A DNA stretch of 64,000 bases, taken from contig OZ360239.1 of assembly GCA_977017645.1 (NCBI GenBank), forward strand, positions 50,282,001 through 50,346,000, in the 5' to 3' direction. The notes beneath the pieces are model-generated. The model worked only from the letters and a program-made list of their open reading frames with translations, was not told where the DNA came from and made no database searches. Positions 1,773 to 55,153 of the stretch are shown here, piece by piece (positions within the stretch are counted from its first letter, which is position 1; every line of letters starts with the position of its first letter). This stretch comes from Torpedo marmorata (Eukaryota). Made by a program: the position numbers and the translations under genes.

Positions 1773-2373
1773 TGTAGCGACTACCATCCATAAAAAAGCC
1801 GCTCGGAGGCTAAGTAGGCTTTTTACTGTGACACGTTAGAACAAATTCTTATCGAAGTCCAGACGCGTTTTAAAGCTGTTTATTATTGAACACGAAAGGA
1901 CTTGATAACGATAACTGTAACGTCCGTGATAATGGTAACGTCTGTGCTAACGATAACTGTAACGACTAACGTAACGTCCATGTAACGGTCAACAGAAAAT
2001 ATCGGAGCCCTACTCACCCACCGTCTCCCGCCATACCAGTCAACGCGGGCTAACTACACTCCAACCACGCACAACCCCAGCGCATGCACCAACTCCCAGT
2101 GAATGGCGCATGCTCACTGGCGAAAACGCTGGCCCAGGCTGAAACCGCTCACTGCCGGGGCCGAGCCAAGCGCACATGCGCCGCCACACTCTCTCTCTTT
2201 CTCTCTCTCTCGAGCCCCCCCCTCCACCTGTTAAACGGTGCCGGCCGTCGCGCATGCGGCCAATGGGCGGAGGGTGAGAGTGAGCGTCTTCGCGCAGCCT
2301 CCGGACCCCGGGACACCACCAACGCCTGCAGACAAACCAAGAAACGGTAAACAACGGGCCTTTGGCTCTTACA
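1773..2373 (-). repeat. 3' LTR of BEL-1 (601 bp)
   Basis: Starts tgtagcgactacc and ends ggctcttaca; homologous to 9063-9623 plus 10288-10323; CpG-rich. Confidence 0.95.
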
Positions 2374-2387
2374 CCGGCCCCTAATTA
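2374..2387 (-). promoter_or_regulatory. Polypurine tract of BEL-1
   Basis: Sense strand TAATTAGGGGCCGG abuts the 3' LTR; identical to the tract of BEL-2 at 54611-54624. Confidence 0.8.
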
Positions 2388-2605
2388 TTATGTCTCAATA
2401 ATAATTACACAATTATAAATACCAATCAAATACAGTAAATTTCAATATTATGTAGATCTTCTTTCTTCATAGGCCAGAGGTTACCAGCACATGGCCTTGA
2501 AAAGAGTGACCTTTACCACCATTCTGGACCAGTAAAGTCTGTAGTCTGTGTAGTGAGCAAGGGGCAAGGTCCAAAAAACAACAAAATAAAGTCAGTTGGG
2601 GCTTG

Positions 2606-5600
2606 TCAAAGTTCCTCTGTCTCCTGTAGAAGGCAGACTTTGTTGATGGGTCTGTTCAGAAAGCCGGTTTTGGTCTTGATCCGAACATGACGTACAAGTC
2701 CCTTTTTGTCCAGAATGGTCTCAACAATTTTTCCAGTTAGCCAGGAGTTTCGAGGCGTTGAATCATCCATGATGAACACGATGTCTCCTGGTGTGAAGTT
2801 GCATCTGATGTTAGACCATTTTTGTCGTTCCTGCAGTTGGGGGAGATATTCTTTAATCCATTTTTTCCAGAACAAGTCCGACATATACTGAACTTGCCTC
2901 AACCTGCGACGAGCATATATGTCTTCCTTCTGAAACTGCCCTGGTAGCATCGATGGCATAGTCTTAAGGAGCAGAAGATAGTTCGGAGTAAGAGCTTCAA
3001 AGTCATTTGGATCTGTAGAAGCCTTGGTGATTGGACGACTGTTGAGGATAGCCTCAGCTTCACATAAAACTGTGTGGGACCCTCCTTGTCAAGACTTTGC
3101 ACATTTAGGGTGGAATTGAGAACCTTTCGCACTGATCTAATTCATCTTTCCCATACACCTCCATGGTGTGAGCCAGCAGGGGGATTGAAGATCCAATTGA
3201 TTCTTTTCTGGAGCAGTGTATTATGGATTTGACCCTGATTCCAGCTTTCAATCGCCTCCCTCAACTCGCGCTGAGCTCCCACAAAATTGGTGCCATTGTC
3301 AGATCGTAGTTCTTTCACTTGACCACGTCTAGCTGTAAAATGCCAAAGGGCATTGATGAAAGAGTCTGTATCAAGTGATGATGCCACTTTGATGTGAATT
3401 GCTCTTACAGCTAAACATGTGAAAAGAACACCATAGCGCTTCACAACACTCCTTCCACGTTTCACTTCAAAGGGTCCAAAATAATCGACTCCAACATATG
3501 TGAAGGGAGGTTCATCAGGAGAGACTCTGTTCAGGGGCAAATCTGCCATCTGCTGTTGTCCAGGAGTAGCATTTATACGCCGACAAACAACACATTTCGA
3601 CACAATTTTTCTGATTGACACAGTGGCGTAGTCTGGATAACATATGGTTGCGACCACCATGACCCACATCTTCATGAACATGTCGAAGAATTAGATCAGA
3701 AATGTGAAAATCTTTGGTCAGTGTGACAGGATGTTTCATCTCTTCTGGCATTGCTGCTCTGCTAAGTCGCCCACCAACTCTTAATACATCATTTTCCAGA
3801 ATGGGGTTGTGTTTACAAATGTGGCTAGTCTTCTTAACATTCATTCTTTTTCTCAGACTTGAGATTTCACCTGCAAATCTCTTCTTCTGGCAAAAGCAGA
3901 TTATCTCCATTTCAGCATTAGCCAGTTCGTCAACTGTGAGACCACTGTTTTCCTAAGTCTCAAGATTTCCTGTCTCCTTTTGTGGCAGACCTCTGTGCTG
4001 GATGTCATCTGGATGAAGCTGAGCAAGAACACCGCTTGCTTGTTTCCTCTTTCTGCTACGATACAGAAGCAGTCCTTTAAGTCTGAGCATCCACACTACT
4101 GCCCTTTTCAAATGAGTCCATGATTAGAAGTATTTGATTAAGCAGGTTACTGGATCCACTTCTTCAGATTTAAGAGACCTTTGGTGAGATTTCTTCCAAT
4201 CCATCAGGATTTTGAGGCCACTCTTCCTGAGGCCGAAGTAGAAACTGAGGCCCGTACACCCATATTTCTTTCTTCAGAAAAGATTTGACTTTCAAACCTC
4301 GGGAACCCATGTCTGCTGGATTGTTAACTGTGTTAACATATCTCCACTGTAGTGCATGTGAGACTTTGTCAATTTCAGCAACTCTGTTGGCCACGAAAGT
4401 TCGGAACCTTGTGGTCTTATTGTTGATGTATTTGAGCACAGAGGTGCTATCGGTCCAAAATATGGAGTCTGCTAGTTCCATCTGCAGCTCTTTTCTCCAC
4501 ACTGTGTCCATTCTGCTCGTCATGGTGGCAGCAGTCAACTCCATTCGAGGGATAGTGACTGGCTTTAATGGAGCCACTCTTGCTTTTCCCATCACATACC
4601 CACAATGTGCCTGACCATGGTTATTATGCAGTAACAGGTAACTAACAGTTCTGTAACCGTCCTCACACGCATCAGCAAAATGATGCAGTTGAGCAGATGT
4701 CACCGTTCCAAAGTTTGTGGGTTTGAAGCATCTGTCAACCTTGAAGTCTTCCAGCTTATGAAGATCCTGAATCCAACACATCCATTCCTGTACAATGGAG
4801 TCTGGTATCGTATCATCCCAACCAATCCTTTTCCTACAAAAATCTTGCAGGATCTTCTTGGCAGTCAGGACTACTGGTGCCAATATTCCTAGAGGGTCAT
4901 ATATCGAACTGACTGTTGAAAGAATCCCCCTTCTTGTGAGGAATTGGTCTTTCCGATGATTTTGAACTTAAAAACGTCAAGACTGAACACACCATTGTAT
5001 ACCTAACACCCTCTCCACAGGAAGGTTGTCATGGTCCAAGTCCAGATTCTTCATTTCTTTTGCTCTCTCTGTTTCAGGTATGGCAGCCAACACATGACGA
5101 CTGTTACTTATCCACTTAGTAAGTAGAAAGCCTCCCTTGAATCAAATCACTCGTAGTTCATGATAAAGAGCTATTGCATCTTCTTCTAAAGCTGCTGAAG
5201 TGAGGCAGTCATCCACATAGAAGTTGTTCATGATGGTGCTTACAGCTTGAGGGCTAAACTGTTTCATATTGTCCTCAGCACAATTCCTAAGGGCAAAGTT
5301 CACACAACTTGGAGATGAAGTTGCTCCAAATAGATGCACTGTCATTCTGTATTCCACCATGTTCTGACTGTCGTCTCCATCAGGCCACTAGAGGAACCGT
5401 AACAAGTCACGGTCTTCATTTGATACTTTCACCTGGTGGAACATTGCTTCAATGTCTGCAGTGATGACAACAGGTTCTTTACGGAATCTAGTCAAGACTC
5501 CTATCAATGTACTGGTCAGGTCTGGCTGCTGTAAGAGCTGATAATTTAGTGAAACTCCCTGAAATGCCGCTCCACAGTCAAACACCACTCGAAGTTTTTT

Positions 5601-6560
5601 CTTTTGTGGGTGCAAACCCCATGGTGTGGTAGATACCATTTTTTGCCATCGCTACGTTCCAAGACACCATCTGGTACTTTCTCTGTACAATATAACCTTT
5701 GGATATCATGTCAGACATGAAGTTGGTGTAGTCCGATTGAAAGGAAGAATCCCTCTTGAATCTTCTCTTTAGGTTCAGTGTACGTTGTTCAGCAACACTT
5801 TTATTGTCAGGCATGCATATTTCTCTTTCCTTTAAAGGTAATCCAATGCAATCGAGTAGCTTGGCCGAGTTTAATACTAAATCCAAGAATTGCTTGTCTT
5901 CTCTTGAAGGTTCTTGGTCGTCACTTGAGGCACTCAGGAAAGTCAGTCCTGAACTGCTGTTCCCACAGCTCATCAAGTTTCACAACTGATATCCTGTTGA
6001 CACTTGTCGCTGACTGCTCCTGAGCATTGTCGTTTTTTCCTCCTAATGGTCCATTAATCGTCCAACCAAGCATGGTTTTGACAGCGTAAGGTCTGTCTCC
6101 CACATCCATATTACATCTAGTGGTTCCAGAGCCTTTGGTACATCTGAGCCAATCAGCAACTCTATCTCAGAGCCAATTTCAGGTAGATGAACATTCCTTA
6201 GATGAGACCACTGATCAATATCGTTTTGATGTGGGATGTTTCCTTTGTGCACAGACATAGTCTTTTGAGTGTATATGCCTGGGAGATCACAAAAATCACT
6301 GCTGTCCAGTCCAGCGACCTCTAGGCCTGAAGCAATGCTGGTTTCAACGACTTTCCTTTGACCTGTAGTTCTCAATAGAATCCTTGACCTTCTTCCCTAA
6401 AGATTAAGCTTATTCATTAGCCCGACTGTGCAAAATGATGCAGTGCTACCTGGGTCAAGAAATGCATAAATATGCACTGTTGCATTCCTCTTCCTGGCCT
6501 TGGCTTGTACAGGCACTATTGAGAGTTTGCAGTTATCTTCACCGGCCCCAGTAAGACCAC
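2606..6560 (-). pseudogene. pol: BEL/Pao pol (protease, RT, RNase H, integrase), broken by frameshifts and stops
   Basis: ORFs 6397-6693 (AFLDPGSTASF protease), 5388-5639 ([18 protein letters not shown]), 5142-5360 (HLFGATSSP, NFYVDD), 4170-4883 (QLHHFADA, IPRMEL, FWTDS), 3142-3910 (GVDYFGP, SDNGTNF, GGVWER), 2606-2959 (YLPQLQERQKW). Confidence 0.92.
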
Positions 6561-8623
6561 TTGTTAGAACGGAGGCAACAGCACTGTTTTCAGCTGCTTT
6601 CTTTATTTCTGCTTGCTCCTTTTCCATTTCCTTCTTTGGTGGATATGCAGCATTCTGGGATGCTTTAAACTGCATATGTTGCAGCTGAGTCACTTCCTGC
6701 AGTTTTTGCTGATGTGTCCTTTACACAAACAGCCAAAACACAGTCCATTTTCTTTTAGGAAAGCGATTTTCTTACTATGTGCCCTCTTTTCCAACCGTGG
6801 ACACATCTCAAAGCATGTCCACCTCCACAGAACAAACAGCTCTGCACAGCAGGCAAACTCTCCTTTTCCTTAGTTCCTTTATCATTTTCCTTATCTGCAA
6901 CTTTCACCGTGGTGGCAAAGATTCTTCCTTTCATTCTTGGATGAGGCTGTGACTTGGACCTCCTTGCATCTTTGCTCACTGTTGGAGTGCCTTTCATACC
7001 TCCAAATACTGGATCTGTTGCAATCTGCACTTGCCATTCAAGGAAATCCACCATATTCTTAAAGGTAGCTCTTTCATTGCATTTTGCCTGGAAATCACAG
7101 GCCACAGTTCTCCATATATCCCTCAGCCGGTAGGGCAACTTCCTTATGATGACTAGCATATTAGCAGGCATGTCAAGCTCATTCATGTAGTTGATATCTT
7201 CCATGGCATTACAACATCCTCTTAGAAAGAGGGCGTATGCTTGTAGAGCCTTTGTGTCATCCGGTTTTATTGACGACCATGAAAGAGCCTTCTCCATATA
7301 AGCTGTAGCAATTTTATGCTCGTTGCCAAAATGCTCCTGTAATAAAGACTTAGCCTTCCTGAATCCTCTGTCCGAGGCCAAATGTTTGCAACACCTTACA
7401 GGTTCCCTTGGCTGTCCTCTTGTGTACTGTTCCAGATAATAGAGACAATCTCTGGGGTTTTTGTTCTTGCTTTCAATACTGTGTTCAAAGGATTTAATGA
7501 ACGCTTGGTACTGAAGTGGGTCACCATCAAAAACTTGAATCTCCTTCTTGGGCATGGAAGAGAGACACTGTAGCTGGATTAATAATGTAGTGATTTCATT
7601 TTGCCTTTCCATGGCTGAGAATACGTCAAATCTGTTCACCGTTGCTTGTAGCAGGTAATGTAGCTGGAGATGTCACGTGACCGTTCACCCGGATTTCTGA
7701 TGCTTGACTGGAGTGTCATGGGAGCTGTGGTGAGAGATTGGATTTGAGCTACAGCTTTGTCTGCGGTTGTTATTATTGATGTTTGTGGATTGGTAACACC
7801 GTGCTTTGGGAGGATTTGTCCATGTGAATGCATGTCTTGTAACTGTGGTACAAAAGGATCTGCCTTAGCATTGTGTTTTCTTTTCCTGTTGTCCTTTCTC
7901 AAAATATGACTCCATACCATCAGACACTTCAGATAAGTTACTTCGAACACTGGATTCCTTTGAGGCTCCTAGTACCTTCACTTTAGCCATAGTAGCAGCA
8001 ATATTTGCTTCCAGCTCCAGCTGCTACTTTTTCCTCCTTAGCTACTCCTCCTGCTCTTCCAAGGCATATTTATCCTTAAGAAATTTTTGTCGTACAACAA
8101 GAGCAGCCATTTCAGCCTCAGCCTTTATACGTGCAGATGTAGTACTGGACACTCTGGAGCTTGATCCAGAAGAACTTTGTTTGCTTCTCCTGCTTCCAAC
8201 ATTTGACACACTGTCACCTGGTTCTATTTCATCCTGCATGTCAGATGTTGCCTTAATATTTGACACTTTCTCCAGTTTGAATTGCACATCCTTTGCATTT
8301 TCATCCTCTTCACCACCATTTTATGACACACCTTAAGCCATTTCCATGTTTCTGACTTTAAATTCAGTCGATGTCTTCTGCAGTGGTTTTACAGGGTCTT
8401 CATTCCCATCAACCAAAGCCACCTCTTCTTCTATTGCCTGTTTCAGCCTCGCAATGAGAACGCTTTTGACACCACTTATATCTAGGTTCCGCCGCTTCAG
8501 TTCTGATTTGAGATCTGTGATTCCCATGTCTGTGATACATTGCGCCTCAGCGGCAACACCGTCAGCAGTGGTGGCGGCAGCACCAAGCACGCACAACACA
8601 AGCCAAAAATCAACCGTCCCCAA
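6560..8623 (-). pseudogene. gag: BEL/Pao gag with N-terminal SAP domain, disrupted
   Basis: ORF 6755-7639 (FDGDPLQYQAF, LEQYTRGQP, KLPYRLR; DUF1759-like) with Cys/His knuckles at about 6640-6850; ORFs 8042-8287 and 8333-8623 are in one frame, separated only by stops. Confidence 0.85.
8423..8536 (-). other. SAP domain resembling SLTM/SAFB N-terminus, at the start of BEL-1 Gag
   Basis: [38 protein letters not shown] fits the SAP consensus (L..L...L..RGL...G.K..L..RL) and closely matches SLTM as recalled from memory. Confidence 0.85.
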
Positions 8624-9043
8624 TGGACAAGCGGCAGCACATCCAAACTGTTTTCAAACTTGCAACAAATACACAGAAGGAATCCACAAACGTAATCCTA
8701 CCGCTTCTGATGGCTGTGATGCACTGCTGTCAACTAGCAAGTTTCCACCGCGGCAGCAGTCAATAATATCGCTGTGATTCTCGGCAAATGACTCTACCAG
8801 CGTGTATGTAGGACATTCTGCTCTAGGGTTAGAAGCCCTGGATCCCTCTGTGGCCGATGCTCAGACCAATGGAGGCGATTTGCTGTCAGTGGCCTGCGCT
8901 CGGCATTTCCAACATGGCCACCATATTGTTTTCAGTATCGCTCCAAACCGAAGAGGGGAAAGAGTCCAAATGTTCCAACAATGTCCATTCAATCCAAAAC
9001 TCCAAGATTCAAGGCGTCCATGCAGTTCTGTCGTAGATGCGAC

Positions 9044-9057
9044 TATTTTCTGTTGAC
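9044..9057 (-). promoter_or_regulatory. Non-canonical PBS-position sequence of BEL-1, complementary to its own LTR
   Basis: Sense GTCAACAGAAAATA, 5 nt downstream of the 5' LTR, with no TGG; exact reverse complement of LTR segment 9279-9292. Confidence 0.75.
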
Positions 9058-9062
9058 TAATA

Positions 9063-10323
9063 TGTAGCGACTACCATCCATATAAAAGCCGCTTGAAGGC
9101 TAAGTAGGCTCTTTACTGTGACGCGTTAGATCAAATTCATATCGAAGTCCAAATGCATTTTAAAACTTTATTATTGAACACGAAAGGACTTGATAACGAT
9201 AACTGTAACGTCCATGATAAAAGTAACGTCTGTGCTAACGATAACTGTAACGACTAACGTGGTAACGTCCATGTAACGGTCAACAGAAAATATTGGAGCC
9301 CTACTCACCCACCGTCTATCCCGCCATACCAGTCAACGCGGGCTAACTACTCTCCAACCGCGTACAACGCCTGTGCATGCGCCAACCCCCAGTGATTGGC
9401 GCATGCTCACTGGTGAAAACGCTGGCCCAGGCTGAAACCGATCGCTGCCGGGGCTGAGCAAAGCGCGCGTGCGCCGCCACGTTCTCTCTCTTTCTCTCGA
9501 GCCCCCCCTCCACCCGATAAATGGTGCCGGCCGTCGCGCATGTGGCCAATGGGCAGAGGGGGAGAGTCAGCGTCTTTGCGCAGCCTCCGGACCCCGGGAC
9601 ACCGCCAACGCCTGCAGCCAAACTGTAGCGACTTCGTCCAATAAAAATAGTCGCTTGGAGGCTAAGTTAGGTGTTTGTCTGCGACGCGTTTTCATTAATT
9701 TACCAACAAAGTCCAAAACGTTCAAAAACCTTTATTTACCTTTGACTTGCAGTAATCTTCGATGACTTTAATATAAACAGTTCTTGAAATGATGTAAAAC
9801 GATGTAAAAAGGTTATAAAACGATCTAAAACGTGTATTAAACGATGTTAAAACGTGTTAAACGATGTCAAACGTGTTCCAAACGATGTCAAAACGGTTGA
9901 CAGGAATTGTCGACACCTAACTCACCCTCCTCAGATTTCCAACCGACGACTCGCGTGGGGGAACCTGTATTTAAACGCGCAGATCCCACCCGCGCATGCT
10001 CCGTTGTGCACGCGCTGGCCCCGGCCCCAACCGTTCGCTGCTGGGGCTGAGCCAACCGCGCATGCATCTACCTAGTCCATGGCGCATGCGCACTGATGTG
10101 GTGCCGGCCCCGGCTGAAGCCGCCGCTGCCGAGCCAACCACGCATGCGCCGCCACGCTCCAGCTCCGTGAGCGGTGGCGGCACTCGCGCATTGCGGCCTA
10201 CGGGAGAGGCCTACGGACCCCGGGACACCTCCGGCGCCCGTGGCCAAAACAGCAGGAAAGTAGGGAGCCTATGGCTCTTACACAAACCAAGAAACGGTAA
10301 ACAACGAGCCTTTGGCTCTTACA
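9063..10323 (-). repeat. 5' LTR of BEL-1, split by a nested solo LTR
   Basis: 9063-9623 and 10288-10323 together match the 3' LTR. Confidence 0.92.
9624..10282 (-). mobile_element. Solo LTR of a related BEL/Pao family (659 bp)
   Basis: tgtagcgact...ggctcttaca termini shared with BEL-1 but a divergent interior; 5-bp TSD CAAAC (9619-9623 / 10283-10287). Confidence 0.9.
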
Positions 10324-11343
10324 CATAGGAATACTAATCCTTGGGTGTAATTCCAGTTACAATTTGTTAAATTGCTAACATTCAAAAGATTAATTTATTA
10401 CAATGCAGTTGACCAAAACATGTTGGTGCTGACCACACCTTAAGGTGATTGAAATCCATGCCTTAACCTGAAATGCTGAAATAATAAACTGCAAGTTATC
10501 TGTTTGAACTATCTTATGTGGATCAGCATGATTAATGAAACAATAAACCACTCAAAATCATGTTGTTCATTTAAATAGTTTTACAATAGTGGACCAAGAG
10601 AAAATAGCATTTATGAAGGTTCATCATGATAAAAATTGAGAAGCAATATAAGAATGTAGAAATGTAAAGTGTAGAATTGTTAAAGTAAAAATAGTCATTG
10701 AACAATAAGTAATTCAGTTCTACATGTGCTCACATGCAATTCACGTTATTAAACAGTTAACTTGAAAGTTATAAATTTGGCTCTTCTGTTTTCAGCATTT
10801 TTCAGCCATCACCAATGTGAAGAGCTTGAAGGGTGCCACATAGAACCTTCAAATGGTCAAGACAGGGAACTTGCCCAATGGGAGATTTGTTAACATTGCG
10901 AAGCCTCCATTACAATAAGTTTGAGGCACAGTGAATTCCACTGTTTTATAATCTTGGTGTTGTACTTGACCTGAGAAAAGTATAGGAAACAAGCATCAAT
11001 GCCTTGACTTGGATATTTATTTTCACTTCTGTGACAACACCAAACTTAATCATCTCAGCTCATTTGAAACCAGATCCATGCTTCTGATATCATAGACTGG
11101 ATTATACCATTGCAATTTACATCATTTTAAGGTAATACAATCTTTTTCTGCTTGAACTCTGGTTCCATTTTCCCATTCAGTTCTCACGCATGTGCGAGCT
11201 GGCCCATGTTTGTTGGGCATAAACTTAATTTTGGTAAACACGAAAATCTGTAGACACCGTGGTAGAAGTAAAAAACACAAAAGCTGGAGAACTCAGCAGG
11301 TCAAACAGTGTCTTTTATTTAGCAAAGGTAGAAATACATAACC

Positions 11344-12626
11344 TGGACCAAAGACCCGACCAGTCACCCTCTACCACCACCCTCCTCCGCCTGGCAGAAC
11401 TTGTCCTTACTCTCAATAACTTCTCCTTCAACTCATCCCACTTCCTCCAAATCAAAGGAGTAGCCATGGGTACCCGCATGGGTCCCAGCTACGCCTGCCT
11501 GTTTGTGGGCTTTGTGGAGCAATCCATGCTGCAAGCCTACACAGGCAACACCCCTCATCTCTTCCTCCGGTATATCGACGACTACATCGGGGCTGCCTCA
11601 TGCACCCACGATGAGCTTGTCAACTTCATCCACTTCGCATCCAACTTTCACCACGATCTCAAACTCACCTGGTCCATCTCCGATAACACTCTCCCCTTCC
11701 TGGATCTCTCTGTCTCCATCTCGGGAGACAAGCTTTCCACCGACATTTACTACAAACCCTCCAACTCCCACAACTATCTGGACTACACATCCTCACACCC
11801 TGTCCCCTGCAAGCACTCCATCCCCTTCTCTCAATTTCTCCGCCTTCGCCGCATCTGTTCCCAAGATGAGGTGTTCCCCTCCAGATCTTCTGAAATGTCT
11901 GCCTTTTTCCACAAACGTGGCTTCCCCTCCACCACCATCAACTCAGCCCTCACCCGCATCTCCTCCATTTCCCGCTCATCTGCCCTGGCCCCCTCTGCCC
12001 CCAGACGCAACAAACATAGAATACCCCTCATCCTCACCTACCACCCCACCAGCCTCCGCATCCAACACATTATCCGCCGGAATTTCCGGCACTTGCTGCA
12101 GGATCCCACCACCAGACACATTTTTCCTTCTCTTCCCCTCTCGGCCTTCCGTAGGGACCGCTCCCTCCGCGATTCACTCGTGCACTCGTCCCTCCCCACC
12201 CATCGCACCCCCGGAACCTTCCCCTGTGCCCGCAGGAGGTGCAACACCTGCGCCCACACCTCCCCCCTCACCACGGTCCAGGGCCCCAAACAGGCCTTTC
12301 AAGTGAAACTACACTTCACTTGTACATCCAGAGGACTTATTTACTGCATCCGGTGCTCCCTTTGTGGCTTTCTATACATTGGAGAGACCGGTCGTAGATT
12401 GGGAGACCGCTTTGCTGAGCACCTCCTCTCCGTCCGCAACAACAGCGACTTCCCAGTAGCCAACCATTTCAATTCTGGGTCACACTCCCACACTCACATG
12501 TCTGTCCATGGCCTCATGTACTATCCCACCCAGACTACCCGCAAATTGGAGGAACAACATCTCATATTCCGTCTCGGCACTCTCCAGCCAGATGGAATTA
12601 ACATTGACTTTTCTGCTTTCCACTAA
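11344..12626 (+). CDS. Penelope RT plus GIY-YIG endonuclease (5'-truncated, open frame)
   Basis: ORF 11259-12626: GVAMGTRMGPSYA, RYIDD, LPFLD, Cys linker CARRRCNTC, LIYCIRC..C..YIGETGRRLGDRFAEH, VANHFN, GINID. The first 28 or so codons are read from the inverted pLTR. Confidence 0.9.
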
Positions 12627-13315: not shown

Positions 13316-14003
13316 GTCTAAAGCACCTGATCTCTTTGCCTTCCTACTCTACTCCCTTAAGATGCTCACTGAAGCCTAACTCTGACAAAGCCTTTGTCAT
13401 CTGTCCCATTGGCTCCTTAAGTGGCTTGATGTAAACATTTGTTTCATGAAGGTCCTATTTAAGCTGTCATTTAAGTCTCCAGTTTAAGATGTTTCACCTT
13501 TTATATAAATGCAAGTTGATTTTGTTGAGAAGTGGAATTCTCCCTCTTTTGGTCACTAACACCCAACATCTATGCAGGATGTCACAGCTGGAATCACTCT
13601 GCAGTGACCTTCTCTCTGCAAAATTATCAGTAAAATATTTATCAATGTTTGCAATCAGATAATACAGAACAAACATACAATAAAACTGTAATTAGAGAGA
13701 AAACTGTTGACAGTGTGAAGAGGTGAAGACTGTTGTAGAATTGTAAGATTCGTTTTTTCTGGAGATTAGTGGAGAATGGTAGAACATTCTCTCATTAAAA
13801 TCACCAAACTAACAGTGTAGTAACTCCATTGTTGATGCCAGTACCAACCTTACAGAGTTAGGGTTAGGAGTACTTCATATTGCATCTGTGAGATTTTTTT
13901 CTATTCCCACTTCTACCACTCTTTTACAATTCTAAGTGTCTTTGCCCGTTAGTTTGGAATTAAGCACAGTTATATAATGAAATGGTATTTTGAATCATTG
14001 TAA

Positions 14004-14342
14004 TGTAGCGTGAGCTACACAGAATTCTGAAGAACAACACACAGTCGGTGGGTTGCAAGCAAGACTGTTTAATCGGGTCTCGCAGCCTTGGCTTTTAAGC
14101 AGGGCTGCGAGCTTAATTGCTGTCGTTTACATGACCGTTGCCGCTTAATCGCTGTCATCTACATGACAACGGGAGCTGTACATTACAATGGTAACTTTCC
14201 AGGGTCTCCTGTCCTTCTTCTCCTGGTTGAAGAAGGAAGGGGGACGATGCCATCTTTGCGCTGGCACCTGCTATTGCCACGTGTACTTGTGCGGCCGCCA
14301 TCGCGGGCACCGGTTCACTTGCCCAGAGCGGGTACTGCTACA
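14004..14342 (-). repeat. 3' LTR of the Gypsy element (339 bp)
   Basis: tgtagcgtgagc...gctaca; matches 18091-18397 plus an extra 32-bp repeat unit. Confidence 0.92.
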
Positions 14343-17300
14343 CATCCCCCCCCAGAACTGGTGTTAGAGTCTCTCGGTTGTTGGGGAGGCTGGCCCCTGC
14401 CTCTGGGTGCCTGTAGTTCAATAGGTTGAGTTAAGTCCATGTGTGCTGGTTTTAAATGGTCTGTCGTGAAACATTCTTCTTTATCCCCAATGTCCAATAT
14501 GAAGGTGGAGCCGTTATTTTTAACTACCCGGAAAGGGCCTTCGTAAGGCCGTTGTAGTGGTGCCCTGTGTGGTCCCCTTCTGACGAACACATACTCACAG
14601 CTCCGCAGGTTGTTGGGGATGCGCTCGGGCCGCTGTCCACGTTGCGACGTGGGGATCGGTGCTAGCTTGCCGAGTTGCTCGCGGAGTCTGTTGAGCATCT
14701 CTGCTGTGCTGGCATCTTGCCCCCTTGGGGCAGGTAGGAATTCCCCTGGTATCACCAGGGGGGTTCTGTAGACCAATTCTGCCGACAAGGTATTGAGGTC
14801 TTCTTTAGGCGCTGTGCGGATCCCCAGGAGGACCCACGGCAGCTCGTCCACCCAATTTGGACCGTCTAGGCGGGCCATTAGAGAGGCTTTTAGGTGGCGG
14901 TGGAAGCGTTCCACTAAACCATTGGATTGTAGGTGGTAAGCCTTCGTTTTGTGGAGCTGTGTGCCCAGCAAGTTGGCCATGGCTGCCCACGGGGCTGATG
15001 TAAATTGGGCCCCCCTGTCTGAGGTAATGTGGGCTGGCACCCCAAAGCATGCGACCCACGTGGTGATAAGAGCTCTGGTACAGGTTTCGGTGGTGATGTC
15101 CGCGAGAGGGACTGCCTCGGGCCAGCGAGTGAAACGGTCCACCATGGTGAGGAGGTATCGCGCTCCTCTGGAGATGGGTAGGGGGCTTACCAGGTCTACG
15201 TATGTGGTCAAATCGCCTGGTCGTTGGCTCAAATTTTTGTGGCTGGGTCTTTGTGTGGTTTTGGACTTTTGAGGTCTGGCACTGCACGCAGTTCTTGGCC
15301 CATTCGGTGACTTTCTTGCGGAGACCGTGCCAGACGAATTTACTGGAAATAAGTTTAGCGGTAGTTCTGATGGACGGGTGGGATAAGCCGTGAATGGAAT
15401 CGAAAACCTGCCTCTGCCACGTGGCTGGGACAATGGGTCGGGGGTGGCCTGTTGAGACATCACATAGGAGAGTTTGCTCACCTGTGCCGATGGCGATGTC
15501 CTGTAGTTGCAGCCCGGTGGTCGCAGTTCTGAAACAGTGCGTCTCTTCATCAGCCTGCTGCGCCTCTGCCAGGGTGGTGTAGTCAATCCCTTGGGCTAAG
15601 GCTTGGATAGTTGGCTGGGATAGTGCATCCGCTACAGCGTTGTCCTTTCCTGAGACATGCTGAATCTGTGTCGTGAACTCAGATATGTAGGACAATTGGC
15701 GCTGTTGGCAGGCTGACCAGGGGTCGGAGACTTTCGAGAACACAAAAGTGAGCGGTTTGTGGTCATTGAAGGCAGTGAATGTTCTACCTGCCAGAAAGTA
15801 TCGAAAGTGCTGTATGGCCAGGTACAGTGCTAGTAGCTCCAGGTCGAAGGTGCTGTATTTAAGTTCGGGTGGCCGTAAATGTCTACTGAAAAAGGCCAAG
15901 GGTTTCCAGCTGCCTTCACTAAACTGCTCCAGTACCCCGCCGACTGCCGTGTTTGAAGCGTCCACCGTGAGGGAGGTTGGCACGTCGGTTCTGGGGTGAA
16001 CAAGCATCGTGGCATCAGCCAGGGCCTCTTTGGCTTTGTTAAAAGCCGCAGTGGATTCCACGTCCCAAACCAGCACTTTGACTTTGCCAGCCATGAGAGT
16101 GAAAAGCGGACGCATGATGCGGGCTGCTGCTGGCAGGAACCTGTGATAAAAATTGACCATCCCCACGAACTCCTGGAGGCCCTTGACAGTGGACGGTCGG
16201 GGGAATTTGCGAACCGCGTCCACTTTGTCGGGTAGGGGAGTTGCGCCATGGCGTGTGATCCTATGGCCCAGGAAGTCAATTGTGGAGAGGCCGAACTGGC
16301 ATTTGGCCAGGTTGACTGTAAGGCCGAATTGGTTTAGGCTGTTGAACAGCTGGCGGAGGTGTGCTATGTGCTCCTGGCGGGTTTTACTGACGATAAGTAT
16401 ATCATCCAAGTAAATGAAAAGGAAGTCCAAATCCCGCCCTTCCGCATCCATTAAGCATTTGAATGTTTGGGCTGCGTTCTTTAGCCCGAATGGCATGCGG
16501 AGGAATTCAAACAGGCCAAAAGGGGTTATGATGGCTGTTTTGGGCACATCCTCCTGTAGCACGGGGATTTGGTGATAACCTCGGATGAGGTCGACCTTTG
16601 AGAATATAGTCGCCCCGTGCAGGTTGGCCGCGAAGTCCTGAATGTGGGGTACAGGTTAGCGGTCGGGAGTGGTGGCTTAATTAAGCCTGCGGTAGTCACC
16701 GCATGGCCTCCACCCGCCGGATGCTTTTGGCACCATGTGCAGTGGGCTTGCCCAGGGACTATCAGAGCGCCTGATTATCCCTAAGGCCTCCATCCTGCTA
16801 AACTCCTCTTTGGCTAGTCGGAGGTTATCCGGGGGCAAACGGCGTGCGCGGGCGTGGAGCGGTGGGCCCTGGGTGGTGATGTGGTGCCTGACGCCGTGCT
16901 TGGGCATCTCTGCTGTGAACTTGGGGTCGGAAATCGACGGGAAATCAGCGAGCAAGCGGGTGAAATCGTCCTCTGGCTGCGCTACGGAGCTCAGCTGGGT
17001 GGAGTGGTGATTGAATTTTTGCAGGGCAAAGGATTGGAAGGTCCGTGCGTGGACCAGCCGCTTACCCTGCAGGTCTACCAGTAAGCTGTGTGCCCTGAGG
17101 AAGTTGCCCCTAGGATGGGCAGCCACACGTTTGCGAGCATGAACTCCCACGAGAAATGGCTGTCGCTGAACCGGAGGTATGCCGTCCTCGGGCCGAATGT
17201 CGGAATGGAGCTGCCGTTGGTGGCCCGCAGCGCGTGTCCCTGTGACTGGATCCTGGTTTCATACGGTGTCGGGGGAATAATGCTGATTTCAGCTCCTGTG

Positions 17301-17446
17301 TCCGCGAGGAACCACCGTCCGGAATTCTTGTCCCTGACATACAGTAGGCTGTCTCTGTGGCCATCCGTCGTAGCTACTAGCGACAGCTGGCCTTGTCGTT
17401 TCCCGTAAACTTGCAGAGGGACCTGCACTGGTGGTAGAAACACCAA
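14343..17446 (-). pseudogene. pol: Gypsy pol (protease, RT, RNase H, integrase with GPF motif)
   Basis: FLADTGAEIS; SPWASPLHMVPK..WRPCGDYRRLN; MPFGLKNA, YLDDIL; VDASN..GGVL, YSTFDLEL, DHKPL, NAVADALS; HPSI..CVQCQ; VDRFTRW, TSDRG, SNGLVERFHR, YEGPF. Confidence 0.93.
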
Positions 17447-18051
17447 TCGAGGTTGGCGTTGTCGCTGCTGCTACCGTGGGCTGTGCGTTCGGTGGGATGA
17501 GCAGGGTTGGGGTGTTGGGTTTTTGGTTTGACCACTTGGTCGACCATTGTCTGACTCACCCTTCCTGCTTCCCAGAGAGTGTCCGCTCGAGTTGCCACCG
17601 TCCTGGGCGTGGAGAAATCCGCCTCTGCGACTGCCAGGCGCACGTTGAGTGGCATCATCTCTAAGAAGACCTGCTCGAAGAAAAGGCACGTGTGGCCTCC
17701 TGTGAGGGCCAGCATCTCGTCCATGAACTGTGTGGCCGATTTGTCTCCCAGCCCGTCCAGCCGCAGGAAGCGGGCACCCTGCTCCCGTCGCAAAAGCCCG
17801 AAAGTGTTCATCAACAGGGCTTTGAAAGCGGGGTATTTACCCTCCTCCGGTGGTCAGTGCAGGAAATCTTCCACCCGTGCGGCTGCATCCTCTCCGAGTG
17901 AGCTGACCACATGGTAGTACTTGGTGGCATCTCCGGTGATGCTGCGGAGTGCAAACTGTGCTTCTGCCTGATCGAACCACACATGGGGTCGGTGGGTCCA
18001 GAAGGTCGGCAGCTTGACGGCGACTGCGCTGATGGCTGTGGAGTCGGTCAT
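17377..18051 (-). pseudogene. gag: Gypsy gag, frameshifted
   Basis: MTDSTAISAVAVKLPTFWTHRPHVWFDQAEAQF...KYYHVVSSL, continuing in ORF 17377-17814 (GLGDK, WCFYH...C). Confidence 0.88.
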
Positions 18052-18076
18052 TGTAGGTCCAAATTCGTTTGGACTT

Positions 18077-18089
18077 GTCGGGGTTACCA
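18077..18089 (-). promoter_or_regulatory. Primer-binding site complementary to tRNA-Trp 3' end
   Basis: Sense TGGTAACCCCGAC versus the tRNA-Trp PBS TGGTGACCCCGAC (one mismatch), 1 nt from the 5' LTR. Confidence 0.85.
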
Positions 18090-18090
18090 A

Positions 18091-18397
18091 TGCAGCGTGA
18101 GCTACACATAATTCTGAAGAACAACACACAGTCGGTGGGTTGCAAGCAAGACTGTTTAATCGGGTCTCACAGCCCTGGCTTTTAAGCAGGGCTGTGAGCT
18201 TAATTGCTGTCGTTTACATGACAATGGGAGCTGTACATTACAATGGGAACTTTCCCGGGTCTCCTGTCCTTCTTCTCCTGGCTGAAGAGGTAGGGTGGTC
18301 GGTGCCATCTTTGCGCCGGCCCCTGCTGTTGCCACGTGTACTTGCGCGGCCGCCATTGTGGGCACCAGTTCGCTTGCCCAGAGCGAGTACCGCTACA
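18091..18397 (-). repeat. 5' LTR of the Gypsy element (307 bp)
   Basis: tgcagcgtgagc...gctaca, adjacent to the PBS. Confidence 0.92.
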
Positions 18398-18717
18398 GTA
18401 AGATACTTATTGCAATTCACAACTTAACAACTATTTTCTGACCAATGAAATATGTAATTAATTCTGAACTGCAAAGTTAAATGCAGATTTTTATTACATG
18501 ATAATAAAGGAACCTTGAGATGTAATTATGTTTGCAGGTCATAGATATTAAAATAAAGTTTAAAGGACAGTGAAAAAAACACTTGTTTTATACTTTTGAC
18601 CATGTTTATTGTATAGTAGGTATTTGTTTTTGGCAGTACATTTGAGAAAGTTATCATGCAGGGATAACCTGCGTCAAAGTTGATTCAGCAGATTGATGTT
18701 GTGGTACATTAATGTCA

Positions 18718-49439: not shown

Positions 49440-49966
49440 TGTAAGAGCCAAAGGCTCGGTTCTTACCTTAATCGCGGCGTTCTGATGGTCTCAGCGGGTG
49501 TCGGAGGACTCACGGAGATTAGTAGGCCGTGCTAGGACTATTGACTACTCTGCGCATGCGCAGGAGTGCCGATGAGTGCATGCGCAGTGGGGAGGTGGCT
49601 GGAGCATGCGCGGTGGAGCATGCACGCGAATCGGGAAAGAAGTATAAAAAAAACATGGCGACGTAGAGGAGGGTGAGCGAGATCATCATAGTTTTCATTG
49701 ACCGTTATTAATGACGTTATAAAGGATCGTTTTAAAGGAACGTTATTAAGAATCGTTATTAAGCATCGTTATCAAGGATTGTTATCAAGGATTGTTTATA
49801 TTTCGTTAAAGAAGATATTTAAGTTATTGAAGATTGCTACAAGTCATCATGTGTTAATAAACATTTTGAACATATTGGATTTTGTTAGTAAATTAATTGA
49901 AATGTGTCAAGAACAAGTGTCTCACCGAGCCTCCAAGTGACTATTTATTGGATTGAAGTCACTACA
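49440..49966 (+). repeat. 5' LTR of BEL-2
   Basis: tgtaagagcc...gtcactaca; TATA box at 49643, AATAAA at about 49856, GCGCATGCGC motifs. Confidence 0.93.
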
Positions 49967-49971
49967 ATTTA

Positions 49972-49984
49972 GTCAATGAAAACT
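49972..49984 (+). promoter_or_regulatory. Non-canonical PBS-position sequence of BEL-2, complementary to its own LTR
   Basis: GTCAATGAAAACT, 5 nt after the LTR; exact reverse complement of 49690-49702 AGTTTTCATTGAC. Confidence 0.75.
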
Positions 49985-50424
49985 TATTGTTTGGAACAGA
50001 AAATTGAAGAATAGAAGATAGAATAAGCTCTCTGTGCTTTGGATTGATATTTAAAATAAGATGGTGGCCATCTTGGAAATGCCTCGAGTGAGGGGCAGTT
50101 TGTAATCAACATCCATCTGCCATGAGTAACAGCCAGAGAAGGATTCAGAGCTTCTAATCTTATAGTAAAGTATCCTATAAATACGTTGGTGAAACCATTT
50201 CTTGAAAATCAGTGATATTATTGACGGATGCTGCGGTGGAAACTCATTTGTTAATAGCAGCATATTACAACCATCTGAAGCGGTAGGCATAAGTCTATGG
50301 ATTCCTTCTGTGTATCTTTGGCAAGTTTGAGCACAGTTTGGATTTGCTGCCGCTAGTCCTTTGGGGACTGTTGATATGGCTAGAGTTGTGCATTCTCGAC
50401 GGACGGTGGAACAAGACGAGGAAA

Positions 50425-53236
50425 ATGGCCGCAGCAGCCGCTGATGTTGCTGTTGAGGAACAACTTATTGAAGACATGAATGTTGTGGATCTCAAAGAAG
50501 AATTGAGGTGACGGAAACTAGACACAAGTGGAAATAAAAATGTTCTCATTGCAAGACTGAAGCTGGCAAAAGTAGAAGAGGCGGCGGCTTCAGTTGATGG
50601 GAATGAAGACATTGCAAACTCATTGCAGAAGACAACGACTGAACATGAAGACAGCAACATGGAAATGGTTGAAGATGTGTCACCAAATGGTGATGAAGAA
50701 AATGAAGGGGATGAAGATGCAAAGGATGTACAATTTGAATTGGAGAAAGAGGTAAGTAAGAAGACAACATCTGACCTGCAGGACGAAATACAAGCAAGTG
50801 ACAGTGTGTCAAATGTTGAAAGCAGGAGAAGAAAACAAAGTTCTTCTGGTTCAAGCTCAAGAGTTTCTCGTACTTCAAGTTCTGCATCGTCAAGTACAAA
50901 GATTGAAGCTAACTTGGCTGCTCTTCTTGCACAACAAAATTCCCTTAAGGATAAACATATTTTAGAAGGACAGGAGGAGCAGCTAAGGCAAAAGGAGGAG
51001 CAGCGAAAGCAGCAGCTAAGGCAGAACCAGGAGCAGCTAAGGCAGCAGCTAAGGCAGAACCAGGAGCAGCTAAGGCAAAAGGAGGAGCAGCTAAGGCAGC
51101 AGCTAAGGCAGAACCAGGAGCAGCTAAGGAGCTGGAAGCAAATATTGCTATTGCCAGGGCCAGAGTGAAGGTACTAGAAGGCTCAATGGTATTGGTGCTC
51201 GGAGTAAATTATCTAAAGTGTATGATAATAAGAAGTCATATTTTAAAAAAGAGCTGTAGGAAAAGAAACCAGCAAAAAAAGGCAGATATTTTAGTACAAC
51301 GGGTACTTGCAAATACAAGGACAAATTCTCCAAGAGCATGGTGTTATCGAGTCACATGTACCAGTGGTAACATCCGAAGACAAAGCTGCGGCTTGGGTTT
51401 GGTCAAACGCCGCAGATCCTTTGGCATTAGAGTCAAGCATCAGAAATACGGGAGAAACTACACCAGTGAGGTTTCCAGATACATTACCTGTTACAAGAGG
51501 CGGTGAATGGAGCAATGTATTATCAGCCATGGGAAGACAAAATGAAATTGCTGCATCATTAATTCAGTTACAGTCTCTCTCTACTTTGCCCAAGAAAGAG
51601 ATACAAACTTTTGATGGTGATCCACTTCAGTTCATGAGATCTTTTAGACGCTATATTGAAAATAAGTGTCAAGACCCTGAAGAATGTCTTTATTATTTGG
51701 AAATGTTTACAAAAGGACAGCTAAGGGAACTTGTAAAGAGTTGTCAACATAGGTCTTTGGATTAGACAGAGCTAAGTCTTTACTAGAACAGCATTTTGGC
51801 AACAAGCATCAAATTGCTTTAGCTTATATGAATAAAGCTCTTAAATGGACATCAATAAAACCGAATGATTTAAAAGCTCTACAAGCATACAGTCTCTTTT
51901 TAAGAGGATGTTGTAATGCCATGGAAGATATCAATAATATTTGTGAGCTTGATCTGCCTGGTAATATGCGAATCATCTTAGATAAATTACCTTACAAGAT
52001 GTGTGATAGATGGAGAAATTTAGCTTGTGTTTTCCAAGAAAAATACGATCAAAGAGCTACCTTAAAGGATTTGGTAGATTTTCTTGAATGACAAGTGTAC
52101 ACTGAAACAGATCCAATATATGGAAATACCAGAGACAATTCAATGGGGAACAAAGATGTAAGGTGGTCTAACTCACAGCCTAGTCCGAAATTGAAAAGGA
52201 GTACTTTTGTTACAGCTGTGTCAGTTATAAATAAAGAAAAAGATAAAGTAAATAAGGAAAAGGAGAGTTTGCCTAAGAGAAAAGTTGTTTGTTCTGTAAA
52301 GGTGGACATGCTTTGGAAATGTGTTTAAGGTTGGAAAAGAAGGAACATATTGAGAAGATCGCTTTCTTAAAGGAAAACGATGTTTTAGCTGTCTGTGTAA
52401 AGGGCACATCAGTAAAAATTGCGAGAAGTGAATTAACGGTAACATATGCAATTTGAAGCATCGTAGAATGTTGCATATACATCAAAGAAACAAGGAATTG
52501 GAAAAGGAGCAAACAGAAACAAAGGAAACATCAGACAAGTGGTCTTACTAGGGCCGGTGTGGATAACTGCAAACTTTCAATAGTGCCTGTACAAGTCAAG
52601 ACCAAGAAAGGGAATGCAACAGTACATACATATGCATTTCTCGACCCAGGCAGCACTGCATCTTTTTGCACGGTGGGACTAGTTAACAAAATTAATCTTC
52701 AAGGAAGAAGGTCAAGGATTATGTTGAAAACCATGGGACAAGAAAAGGTCGTTGAAACCAGCATTGTTTCAGGCTTAGAGGTTGCTGGATTGCATGACAA
52801 AGAATTTTATGATCTTCCAAGTTTATACACTCAGAAGACTATGCCTGTGCACGAAGGAAACATTCCGCATCAAAATGATATCCCTCATTTGTCTTATCTG
52901 TGGAAGGTTTATTTACCTGAAGTTAATTCTGAGGTAGAGATGCTGATTGGTTCAAATGTACCAAAAGTTTTGGAACCACTAAAAGTAATACGGAGTAGAG
53001 GGAATGAACCTTACGCTGTTAGAACCAAGTTTGGTTGGACAATCAATAGACCATTAGAAAGAAATAATGATATTGCACAGGAACAGTTAGCGATAAATGT
53101 TAACAGGATTTCAGTTGTGAAATTTGATGAGTTAAGGGAGCAGCAAAAGACTGTAAATAAGAAAGTCAGTTTTGAACAAAAGAAAACAGATCAATGTGAA
53201 AATCAATCAAAGGTATTTAAAACAACATTGAAATAA
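50425..53236 (+). pseudogene. gag: BEL-2 gag-protease with N-terminal SAP domain, disrupted
   Basis: ATG at 50425 (aaaATGG): MAAAAADVAVEEQLIEDMNVVDLKEELR*RKLDTSGNKNVLIARLKLA, in frame with ORF 50623-51168; DUF1759-like 51307-52091; protease AFLDPGSTASF in 52559-53236. Confidence 0.85.
50969..51132 (+). repeat. In-frame minisatellite coding (E/Q)QLRQ repeats
   Basis: Repeated gagcagctaaggcag / cagaaccag units; BEL-1 has a single EEQEE-L unit at this position. Confidence 0.85.
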
Positions 53237-54390
53237 TTATTTTCATCAGAAATGGATGATAATGAAGTATTAGAAGATGTTGCAAATAATACTAGTGAGT
53301 ATTCCTGTGTAATTGAATCTGAGGCAGGAATAAAGCAAATGACTGAGAACAAATGTGAAAGTAGATTTTGTAGCTGAGGTTACAGCAGACAAGGTAAATA
53401 AAGAAATGTTGCAACATGATGCAAAACTGGCGAACGCAGAAAATTGTGCTGATACAATAAAGAAGCATGTGACTGATAATTTAATGCAATTGAATTCAGA
53501 GAACAAAATGTTGAAAAGGGAATTGGAAATATTGGATAATCATGAAAACAGTAAACAAAGATTTAATTGTAAATAAAATTCGCAAAGTCAGAAAGTTGAA
53601 GAAAAGAATAACTGCTGAAGAAATAAATAGTTATTGAGGAAAGAGATTCAGCATTATCAAGATATAAAAGGTTGGAGGAAGAGATTCATCTTTTGAAAGA
53701 GAACAAGTTATTGGTTAATAACACAAAACAGCTGACTACAGAAAACAATCAAGAATATAAATTGAAGGTTCAGCTACTAACAATGCAGAAAGAAAGTGAT
53801 ATTGCATTGCAGCAATGTAACAAGCAAGATGAAGAAATTCAAACATTGCAAGTTTACCATAGTGGGATTGACAATAGAAGTATCAATATATCACATGATA
53901 TTTTCACTTCAAATCAAGTTATTAATTTCTCGGAAGAAAATGAGACTGAATCGAAAGTTGCGAAATTCAATATGGAATTGAAGGAAAAAGCAATAGAAAC
54001 CACAGTGGTTGAAAAGACTGCAGTTTTAGTTAAAGGAATTTGTATGAGCCATAAGTGGAACCTGTCTACTTATTTACAGAAGGTTTCTACAAATGTTGTG
54101 GATGTTGATGAGTTTGAAGAACTAATATTGTTTGAATATTATCTTTGTATGATCAACTGTGGAAAAGAAAGAAAAGGATGAGCAAATCTGTTGCAAGAAA
54201 GGTTAAAGAGACTCGTTTATTAAAATCGAGAGGATCAGATAAATATTCAAAATCTGGTTCTGAAAGTTCATATTATTCCTATGAGAAACGACATGCTGAA
54301 GAAGTACCTCATGTTAAATTCAAAAGGAAAACAGTATCTATTTTGTCTGAGGAAGATTTGAGGTTTACTGGTCGACGTTTTAACTCAAAG
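53145..54390 (+). pseudogene. AT-rich, coiled-coil-coding cargo replacing pol in BEL-2
   Basis: E/K/Q/L-rich ORF pieces 53355-53576, 53672-54181 and 54145-54414 with no RT or integrase motifs; BEL-1 homology stops after NRISVVKFDEL.EQQ and resumes at gaactttga. Confidence 0.6.
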
Positions 54391-54624
54391 ATTCTGGAGA
54401 TAAAAGAACTTTGATAAATACAAACTGACTGTATTTTGTTGTTTTTGTATACTACACAGGTTACAGAATTTATTGATCCAGAGTGATGGTAAACTCTGGT
54501 CTTATGAAGAAATAAGAAAGAAGATTTGTATATTATTTGAATGTTATATGATTATTGTTATTTGTAATTGATTGTGTAATTATTATTTCAGACATTACGT
54601 CTCATTATAATAATTAGGGGCCGG

Positions 54625-55153
54625 TGTAAGAGCCAAAGGCTCGGTTCTTACCTTTATCGCGGCGTTCCGATGGTCTCAGCGGGTGTCGGAGGAGTCACGG
54701 AGATTAGTAGGCCATGCTAGGCCTATTGACTACTCTGCGCATGCGCGGGAGTGCCGACAGGCGCATGCGCAGTGGGGAGGTGACTGGAGTATGCGCGGTG
54801 GAGTATGCGCGGAGGAGCATGCACGTGAATCGGGAAAGAAGTATAAAAAAAAACATGGCGACGTAGAGGAGGGTGAGTGAGATCGTCATAGTTTTCATTG
54901 ACCGTTATTAAAGACGTTATAAAGGATCGTTTTAAAGGAACGTTATTAAGACTCGTTATTAAGCATTGTTATCAAGGATTGTTTATATTTCGTTAAAGAA
55001 GATATTTAAGTTATTGAAGATTGCTACAAGTCATCATGTGTTAATAAACATTTTGAACATATTGGACTTTGTTAGTAAATTAATTGAAATGCGTCAAGAA
55101 CAAGTGTCTCACCTAGCCTCCAAGTGACTATTTATTGGATTGAAGTCACTACA
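54625..55153 (+). repeat. 3' LTR of BEL-2
   Basis: Matches 49440-49966; preceded by TAATTAGGGGCCGG. Confidence 0.93.

Follow-up and report, generated by a model that had tools for sequence, protein, structure and literature searches.

Captured SLTM and FIP1-like mRNA pieces at the start of Gag in a BEL/Pao retrotransposon family of Torpedo marmorata

Where does the SAP domain that opens the Gag protein of a ray BEL/Pao retrotransposon come from, and does it do anything for the element? The question is raised by a 64,000-nt stretch of the 6.2-Gb genome of Torpedo marmorata (here, the window), for which a preliminary description, made from the sequence alone, had placed a SAP domain inside both long terminal repeats (LTRs) of a BEL/Pao element. 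That placement was borne out. Direct reading of the sequence reveals a full-length but decayed copy on the minus strand (copy 1, 1773–10323; subfamily A as defined below), flanked by a 5-bp target-site duplication (1768–1772 and 10324–10328), which was also read directly. The 3′ LTR is localized at 1773–2373 and the 5′ LTR at 9063–10323 (both minus strand), the latter being split by a related solo LTR (9624–10282) that is itself flanked by a 5-bp duplication. The LTR pair, with the TG...CA ends and short target-site duplication of an LTR retrotransposon, is 92.3% identical over 556 nt.

Copy 1 aligns to amino acids 169–2066 of the SAP-less BEL/Pao polyprotein P0178, which contains all three of the domains DUF1759, Peptidase_A17, and DUF5641. 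Native Gag, from ancestral residue 169 through the capsid-like DUF1759 (7103–7531), occupies 7103–8254, and the protease, reverse transcriptase (RT), RNase H region, and integrase occupy 2609–6636 (both minus strand), the latter stretch with stops and frameshifts. Across family copies, the Gag–protease–RT–RNase H–integrase composition is represented by DUF1759, Peptidase_A17, RT, and the integrase zinc finger. The SAP domain itself (PF02037; 8432–8536, minus strand), encoded within an open frame at 8336–8653 of the same strand, was confirmed by the Pfam profile with an E-value of 2.5e-10 and 40.1 bits (cut-off 23.9); in the family as a whole, scores range from 31.9 to 48.1 bits against the same gathering cut-off. 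The earlier statement that the domain is in frame with Gag is correct as regards the reading frame itself; copy 1, however, has two stop codons just past the SAP domain (8333–8335 and 8321–8323) and no start codon, as a 44-nt deletion took out the ATG along with most of the untranslated piece described below. Copy 1 is a dead element. A single natural open frame of 716 amino acids, running from the methionine through SAP to DUF1759, is found in a sibling copy (L031).

Two host mRNAs at the start of Gag

The preliminary description attributed the SAP domain to the 5′ end of an SLTM mRNA, giving 31 of 38 residues as identical to human SLTM. This count was reproduced on the alignment with human SLTM (P0045), to which the copy 1 peptide is identical at 32 of 42 positions. 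Ray SLTM proteins are the best public matches, with Narcine first at 88% (among the best 120 of 642), and a PDB search yielded distant SAP domains only. In the host genome the SLTM gene was located on G000:C68. The captured piece of copy 1 (8422–8581, minus strand) consists of a UTR remnant, exon 1 (to 8438), and 16 nt of exon 2 (8437–8422), with 109/123 and 16/16 nt, respectively, identical to the host. In the copy L043, the match begins 38 nt before the ATG, runs through the last base of exon 1, and comprises 168 of 189 nt (89%). Beyond exon 1, the element contains exon 2 sequence for exactly 16 nt, with the 1,184-nt intron missing; the exon junction named in the preliminary description is real, and the captured piece crosses it. 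The spliced junction together with the captured UTR shows an mRNA source. The SAFB paralogues were ruled out as donors, one of them matching the element DNA at 66 of 93 nt (71%, over a shorter stretch) and the other not at all; some C-type residues are SAFB-like, yet the adjoining DNA and the UTR track SLTM. Capture of the SLTM mRNA 5′ end is thus strongly supported by the UTR, the exon junction, and the 89% vs. 71% DNA identity.

The acidic stretch noted after the SAP domain is present as well, but it is not generic: it derives from a FIP1-like gene and is thus a further piece of captured host sequence. The 40 residues following SAP are identical at 35 positions to a stingray FIP1-like protein, and the stretch has conserved counterparts in further rays and in a shark. 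The host FIP1-like gene lies on G000:C47, where the matching stretch covers three exons. In copy 1, the captured mRNA piece (8301–8430, minus strand) contains the end of exon 2, the whole of exon 3 (8405–8330), and 29 nt of exon 4; it is identical to the host at 113 of 120 nt and carries the two stops of copy 1. Both FIP1-like junctions, 2|3 and 3|4, are crossed without introns (25/26, 75/79, and 27/29 nt identical), so that, counting SLTM 1|2, donor introns are absent at three junctions. The two pieces share a 9-nt microhomology (8430–8422, 8/9 nt identical), and host transcripts from public runs diverge from the element at positions 7813 and 7821 of L031, which bracket this overlap.

That the element captured pieces of host mRNA is, in our judgment, practically certain. 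The commonest letters of subfamily A differ from the host at only 5/138 nt of SLTM coding sequence, 3/38 nt of UTR, and 3/120 nt of the FIP1-like piece. Template switching by reverse transcriptase is a known mechanism for chimeras of LTR elements and mRNAs, as described in passages of PMC5131818. By this route, SLTM and FIP1-like mRNAs would be co-packaged and copied by template switching at short homologies, and the SLTM UTR with its ATG would become the translation start of the element.

Some of the displaced sequence can still be recognized. Thirteen residues of the ancestral Gag N-terminus remain (8267–8305, minus strand); they correspond to amino acids 55–67 of the SAP-less protein P0121, with 9/13 identical, a match weak alone (E 0.086). 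Relative to P0121 and P0178, ancestral residues 1–54 and about 68–168 are gone; the chimera displaced about 150 Gag residues, including the old start. An Atlas search with the lost N-terminal domain had a best score of 0.88 and no named match.

Subfamilies, relatives, and further captures

Copies selected by SAP similarity formed a set of 70 distinct members after dropping eight re-fetched loci and three near-identical duplicates. Both the SLTM and the FIP1-like pieces are present in all 70, so the domain is no peculiarity of copy 1, an outcome that would have counted against the original proposal. A multiple alignment, which was disturbed by insertions and served for grouping only, splits them into the host-like subfamily A (32 copies), subfamily B (7), and the diverged subfamily C (31). 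Thirty copies picked by capsid similarity included 15 members of a further subfamily, D, as well as seven with full SAP and eight with neither within the flank; longer stretches added one D and one SAP-bearing copy, while a third turned out by coordinates to be the same element as L013. Subfamily D retains the UTR, ATG, and leader, and has lost SAP through a shared in-frame deletion of 147 nt; the view that a clean deletion between 4-nt microhomologies made its junction was considered and given up. Of the 16 D copies examined, 2 still have RT, RNase H, and integrase. D-type junctions were also found in public runs under three other organism labels. Two runs presumed to be RNA contain contigs of the element, an observation neutral as to its expression.

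Exact matches to 21-mer markers in the genome number 55 for A, 65 for B, 1,982 for C, and 235 for D, with none for the controls; D thus exceeds its parent A. The markers are present in 13/32, 6/7, 22/31, and 12/16 of the sampled copies, respectively, which suggests roughly 135 A, 75 B, 2,800 C, and 310 D copies, with calibration sets biased toward well-preserved copies. LTR pairs are mostly 88–96% identical in every subfamily, and A and D are equally old, at 2.9% and 3.0% from their commonest letters. On G000 C2 and C5, the A and D copies lie mostly at higher coordinates (all 16 D matches on C2 are past 119 Mb), and the C copies appear to be spread more evenly. No SAP-less parent was detected in the genome among 94 candidates with the query used, and none of the 30 capsid-picked copies matched the parent before residue 131. 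Likewise, the same chimera was absent from the best 120 of 642 and the best 120 of 561 (393–1253 aa) matches in public protein sets.

SAP domains also begin the Gag of distant BEL/Pao elements. Among 150 Gag relatives screened with a small SAP profile, 12 have an N-terminal match (P0308, P0298, P0294, P0248, P0281, P0318, P0327, P0242, P0255, P0265, P0299, and P0305); of these 12, Pfam placed seven above the cut-off and four below it, with no match for one. For the remaining relatives the screen consisted of the small profile, with Pfam applied to 19 proteins. In a capsid tree of 84 rows, from which fragments with too little N-terminus were excluded, the 12 SAP-like Gags form a single clade (support 99/93), and the ray elements share a clade with the SAP-less P0178 and the cichlid protein P0122 (100/95), the latter being their closest named relative. 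The separate clade and the SAP-less nearest relatives imply that SAP was joined to BEL Gag at least twice. The distant clade (P0308, P0248, P0327, P0242, P0255, P0265, P0299, and others) shares with the ray family not only a SAP domain that starts Gag but also the Ser-rich or coiled-coil stretch and DUF1759 that follow it; it differs in that its donor is not traceable and the FIP1-like piece was not seen. In several of its members, SAP is followed by an acidic Gly-Asp-Pro tail resembling the one behind SAP in SAFB and SLTM, a hint of an older capture from the SAFB family. That the ray elements lie close to an element of a bony fish points to a possible horizontal arrival of the family.

The window contains a second, non-autonomous family member of subfamily C (copy 2; 49440–55153, plus strand), with LTRs at 49440–49966 and 54625–55153 and a 5-bp duplication. 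It has Gag and protease, and lacks RT, RNase H, and integrase. Its SLTM-derived start, leader, and SAP (50425–50580, plus strand) are diverged, with a stop at 50509–50511, and the FIP1-like piece comes next. The place of pol is taken by a mosaic of host sequences (53666–54393, plus strand), with MIPOL1 at 53666–53863 and 53894–54040 and Elongin A at 54322–54393. The MIPOL1 pieces have their best matches in a ray and a shark, at about 61%; the Elongin A remnant is weak in copy 2 and clear in siblings (PF06881). In copy 2 and its kin, the mosaic is in frame and follows the protease. These captures, like the FIP1-like piece and the SAP-less lineage, had been overlooked in the preliminary description.

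Among unbiased C copies, 13 of 20 have the mosaic and one has RT and RNase H; most of the large expansion is the non-autonomous Gag-protease form, which would borrow pol from helper elements. Seen more broadly (window 53150–54400), the mosaic comprises a piece of about 130 amino acids without a named match, pieces of MIPOL1 whose order is rearranged, and Elongin A; an Atlas search with the first 135 amino acids of this pol replacement found no match. It was also observed in L034, L035, L039, L041, L042, L045, L166, and L172. The mosaic is joined to B-, C-, and D-type fronts, which implies recombination between subfamilies.

Selection and possible roles of the SAP domain

Inside each subfamily, dN/dS is close to 1, the value expected of decaying copies. 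For the SAP domain compared between A and C, the estimate is 0.41 (95% CI 0.15–1.01), with 0.51 in the unbiased C sample and 0.74 when CpG codons are left out; the comparison across copies proposed earlier is therefore weak for the domain as a whole, its interval reaching 1.01, and stronger for the site pattern of the core. Of the core positions, defined from 11 unrelated BEL SAPs, 0/11 changed between A and C, compared with 10/22 of the others (Fisher p 0.007), and the core has four synonymous and no non-synonymous changes. The capsid, taken as a control, behaves like SAP (4/37 vs. 41/111 changed, p 0.0017). Of the SLTM-derived coding sequence, 37 of 138 nt changed in C, and C-type SAPs score 42.6–48.1 bits on Pfam, against 45.3 bits for host exon 1.

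The FIP1-like piece has 16 non-synonymous changes and one synonymous change between A and C (p 0.04 vs. neutrality, p 0.007 vs. SAP). Given this excess, it acts as a linker that changes freely or adaptively, and positive selection on this linker (8301–8430 and its C homologues) is possible. In the capsid tree, the C branch is long (0.53 vs. 0.08–0.19) though C insertions are about the age of A, which implies a much faster evolution of the C lineage.

On balance, we lean toward the captured SAP being an accessory, non-essential grip of Gag on DNA or chromatin. The folded domain would hold Gag, or an N-terminal cleavage product of it, on the element's own cDNA or on chromatin. Binding of AT-rich DNA by the SAP domain of SAF-A is described in PMC9114059; the ray domain would bind DNA in the same way, giving a modest gain. 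Conservation of the core from A to C, the Pfam score kept by C-type domains, and the separate origin of an N-terminal SAP on Gag in the distant clade speak for such a grip. Against it stands subfamily D, which lacks SAP, has some pol-bearing copies, is of A's age, and outnumbers A by 235 to 55 marker matches. The family also takes up mRNAs repeatedly (MIPOL1, Elongin A), and hence one more capture requires no special benefit. As D may be complemented in trans by SAP-bearing Gag, its success lowers the case for a SAP function and does not exclude one.

The preliminary description had proposed a chromatin tether for integration and a test for biased insertion sites. No AT-rich bias was found: the GC content of flanks of up to 300 nt is 0.411 for 40 SAP-bearing copies and 0.393 for eight D copies (p 0.47), a small sample of old insertions, with the LTR start located in 48 of 100 loci. 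The tether is thus plausible in view of the conserved core, but it is dispensable in D and left no such bias. We regard with somewhat more doubt than belief a stronger version, in which a newly arrived BEL/Pao element turned the SAP of SLTM into a chromatin tether on Gag, re-inventing the architecture of the other clade, and the SAP branch came to have about ninefold more copies than the SAP-deleted branch. If true, the SAP-keeping and SAP-deleting branches would constitute a natural knock-out pair.

The most serious competitor, which we consider rather unlikely, is that the useful gain was the SLTM 5′UTR and start codon, SAP being a passenger whose core is kept because a misfolded N-terminus harms Gag. 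It would account for the fact that D, holding the UTR, ATG, and leader without SAP, was at least as successful as A in spreading, and it fits the loss of the ancestral start, the serial in-frame captures elsewhere in the family, the dN/dS of 0.74 without CpG codons, and the lack of a flank bias. It does not sit well with subfamily C, which at 1,982 matches is most of the family and has kept the SAP core despite 37/138 changed nucleotides, even though a clean SAP deletion was available; nor does it account for the Gag-SAP of an unrelated BEL clade.

Still less probable is the proposal, made in the preliminary description, that SAP serves as a decoy for, or competitor of, SAFB-family restriction of element RNA. 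The donor does belong to the transposon-restraining SAFB proteins: according to PMC10901741, L1 transcripts are bound and suppressed by SAFB1, SAFB2, and SLTM, as are LTR/ERV transcripts in mouse cells. The element, though, took the DNA-binding SAP alone, and not the RRM or ER-rich regions listed in that paper; moreover, SAP diverged from its donor outside the core, D spread without it, and FIP1-like, MIPOL1, and Elongin A have no shown link to SAFB restriction. Finally, a generic SAP inherited from older BEL elements, or host exons derived from the element, can be given next to no credence, for although SAP-bearing BEL Gags exist, the spliced junctions and the capsid tree reject this reading, A is near-identical to the host, the host copies are intron-bearing and have conserved counterparts in further rays and in a shark (SLTM also in mammals), and the closest BEL relatives lack SAP.

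Known systems, priming, and neighbouring elements

Capture of mRNA by LTR elements, two-gene Pao chimeras, and SAP domains in other transposon classes are already known. LTR-mediated retroposition, as set out in passages of Tan et al. (2016; PMC5131818), includes the maize element Bs1 and the Pao element BATUMI, the latter with a 5′UTR fragment of one gene and a coding fragment of another. As in the ray family, partial spliced mRNAs of several parental genes there replace part of the element ORF, short shared sequences mark the switches, and further non-autonomous rounds follow. The products in those passages are described as acting like non-autonomous elements, unlike the ray copies with full pol; the ray family further differs from the cases given there by the in-frame position at the Gag N-terminus, the supplied start codon, the thousands of copies, and the conserved core. 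SAP domains of Zisupton DNA transposons and a Penelope-like element (PMC8557442) resemble the ray domain as accessory, putatively DNA-binding parts of a transposon protein; they belong to other transposon classes, and the relevant passage names no host donor.

Experimentally shown chromatin tethers include MLV p12, foamy virus Gag, and chromodomain integrases. By analogy with the retroviral Gag tethers, the putative ray module, small and chromatin-binding, would hold the integration complex on chromosomes; the retroviral tethers are established by experiment, whereas the ray SAP is a candidate tether and is dispensable in D. A literature search outside Repbase, Dfam, subscription-only articles, and supplementary files turned up neither a SAP domain on the Gag of BEL/Pao elements nor a captured SLTM piece, and the word "SAP" does not occur in the four main BEL/Pao survey papers; the SAP-Gag clade within BEL/Pao is apparently unreported.

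Accessory domains of retrotransposons are usually too old to be traced. Here, the donors, exon junctions, switch point, displaced domain, selection, and a deletion lineage are found together in one genome, which makes it testable how a captured host domain joins an element protein and whether integration is influenced by a SAP domain on Gag. Through this family, parts of at least four host genes, nuclear or regulatory in nature, have been carried to hundreds or thousands of sites.

In copy 1, the primer-binding position (9044–9057, minus strand) consists of 14 nt perfectly complementary to a site in the LTR (9279–9292), and copy 2 has a corresponding complementarity between the sequence just after 49966 and that at about 49690. 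The primer-binding position is not tRNA-like; a perfect complement of 13–16 nt, located 210–310 nt before the 5′ LTR end, was found in 21 of 59 rows, and the two covary between subfamilies. This pattern suggests candidate Tf1-like self-priming in the BEL/Pao family. The literature search yielded no paper clearly on self-priming in BEL/Pao, and passages of PMC554778 and PMC3601003 add nothing on priming.

Two further elements of the window were labelled by eye from their open reading frames: a Ty3/gypsy-type LTR element at about 14000–18400 (minus strand), with repeats at 14002–14342 and 18089–18397, and a Penelope-like RT with a GIY-YIG-type tail at 11238–12626 (plus strand).
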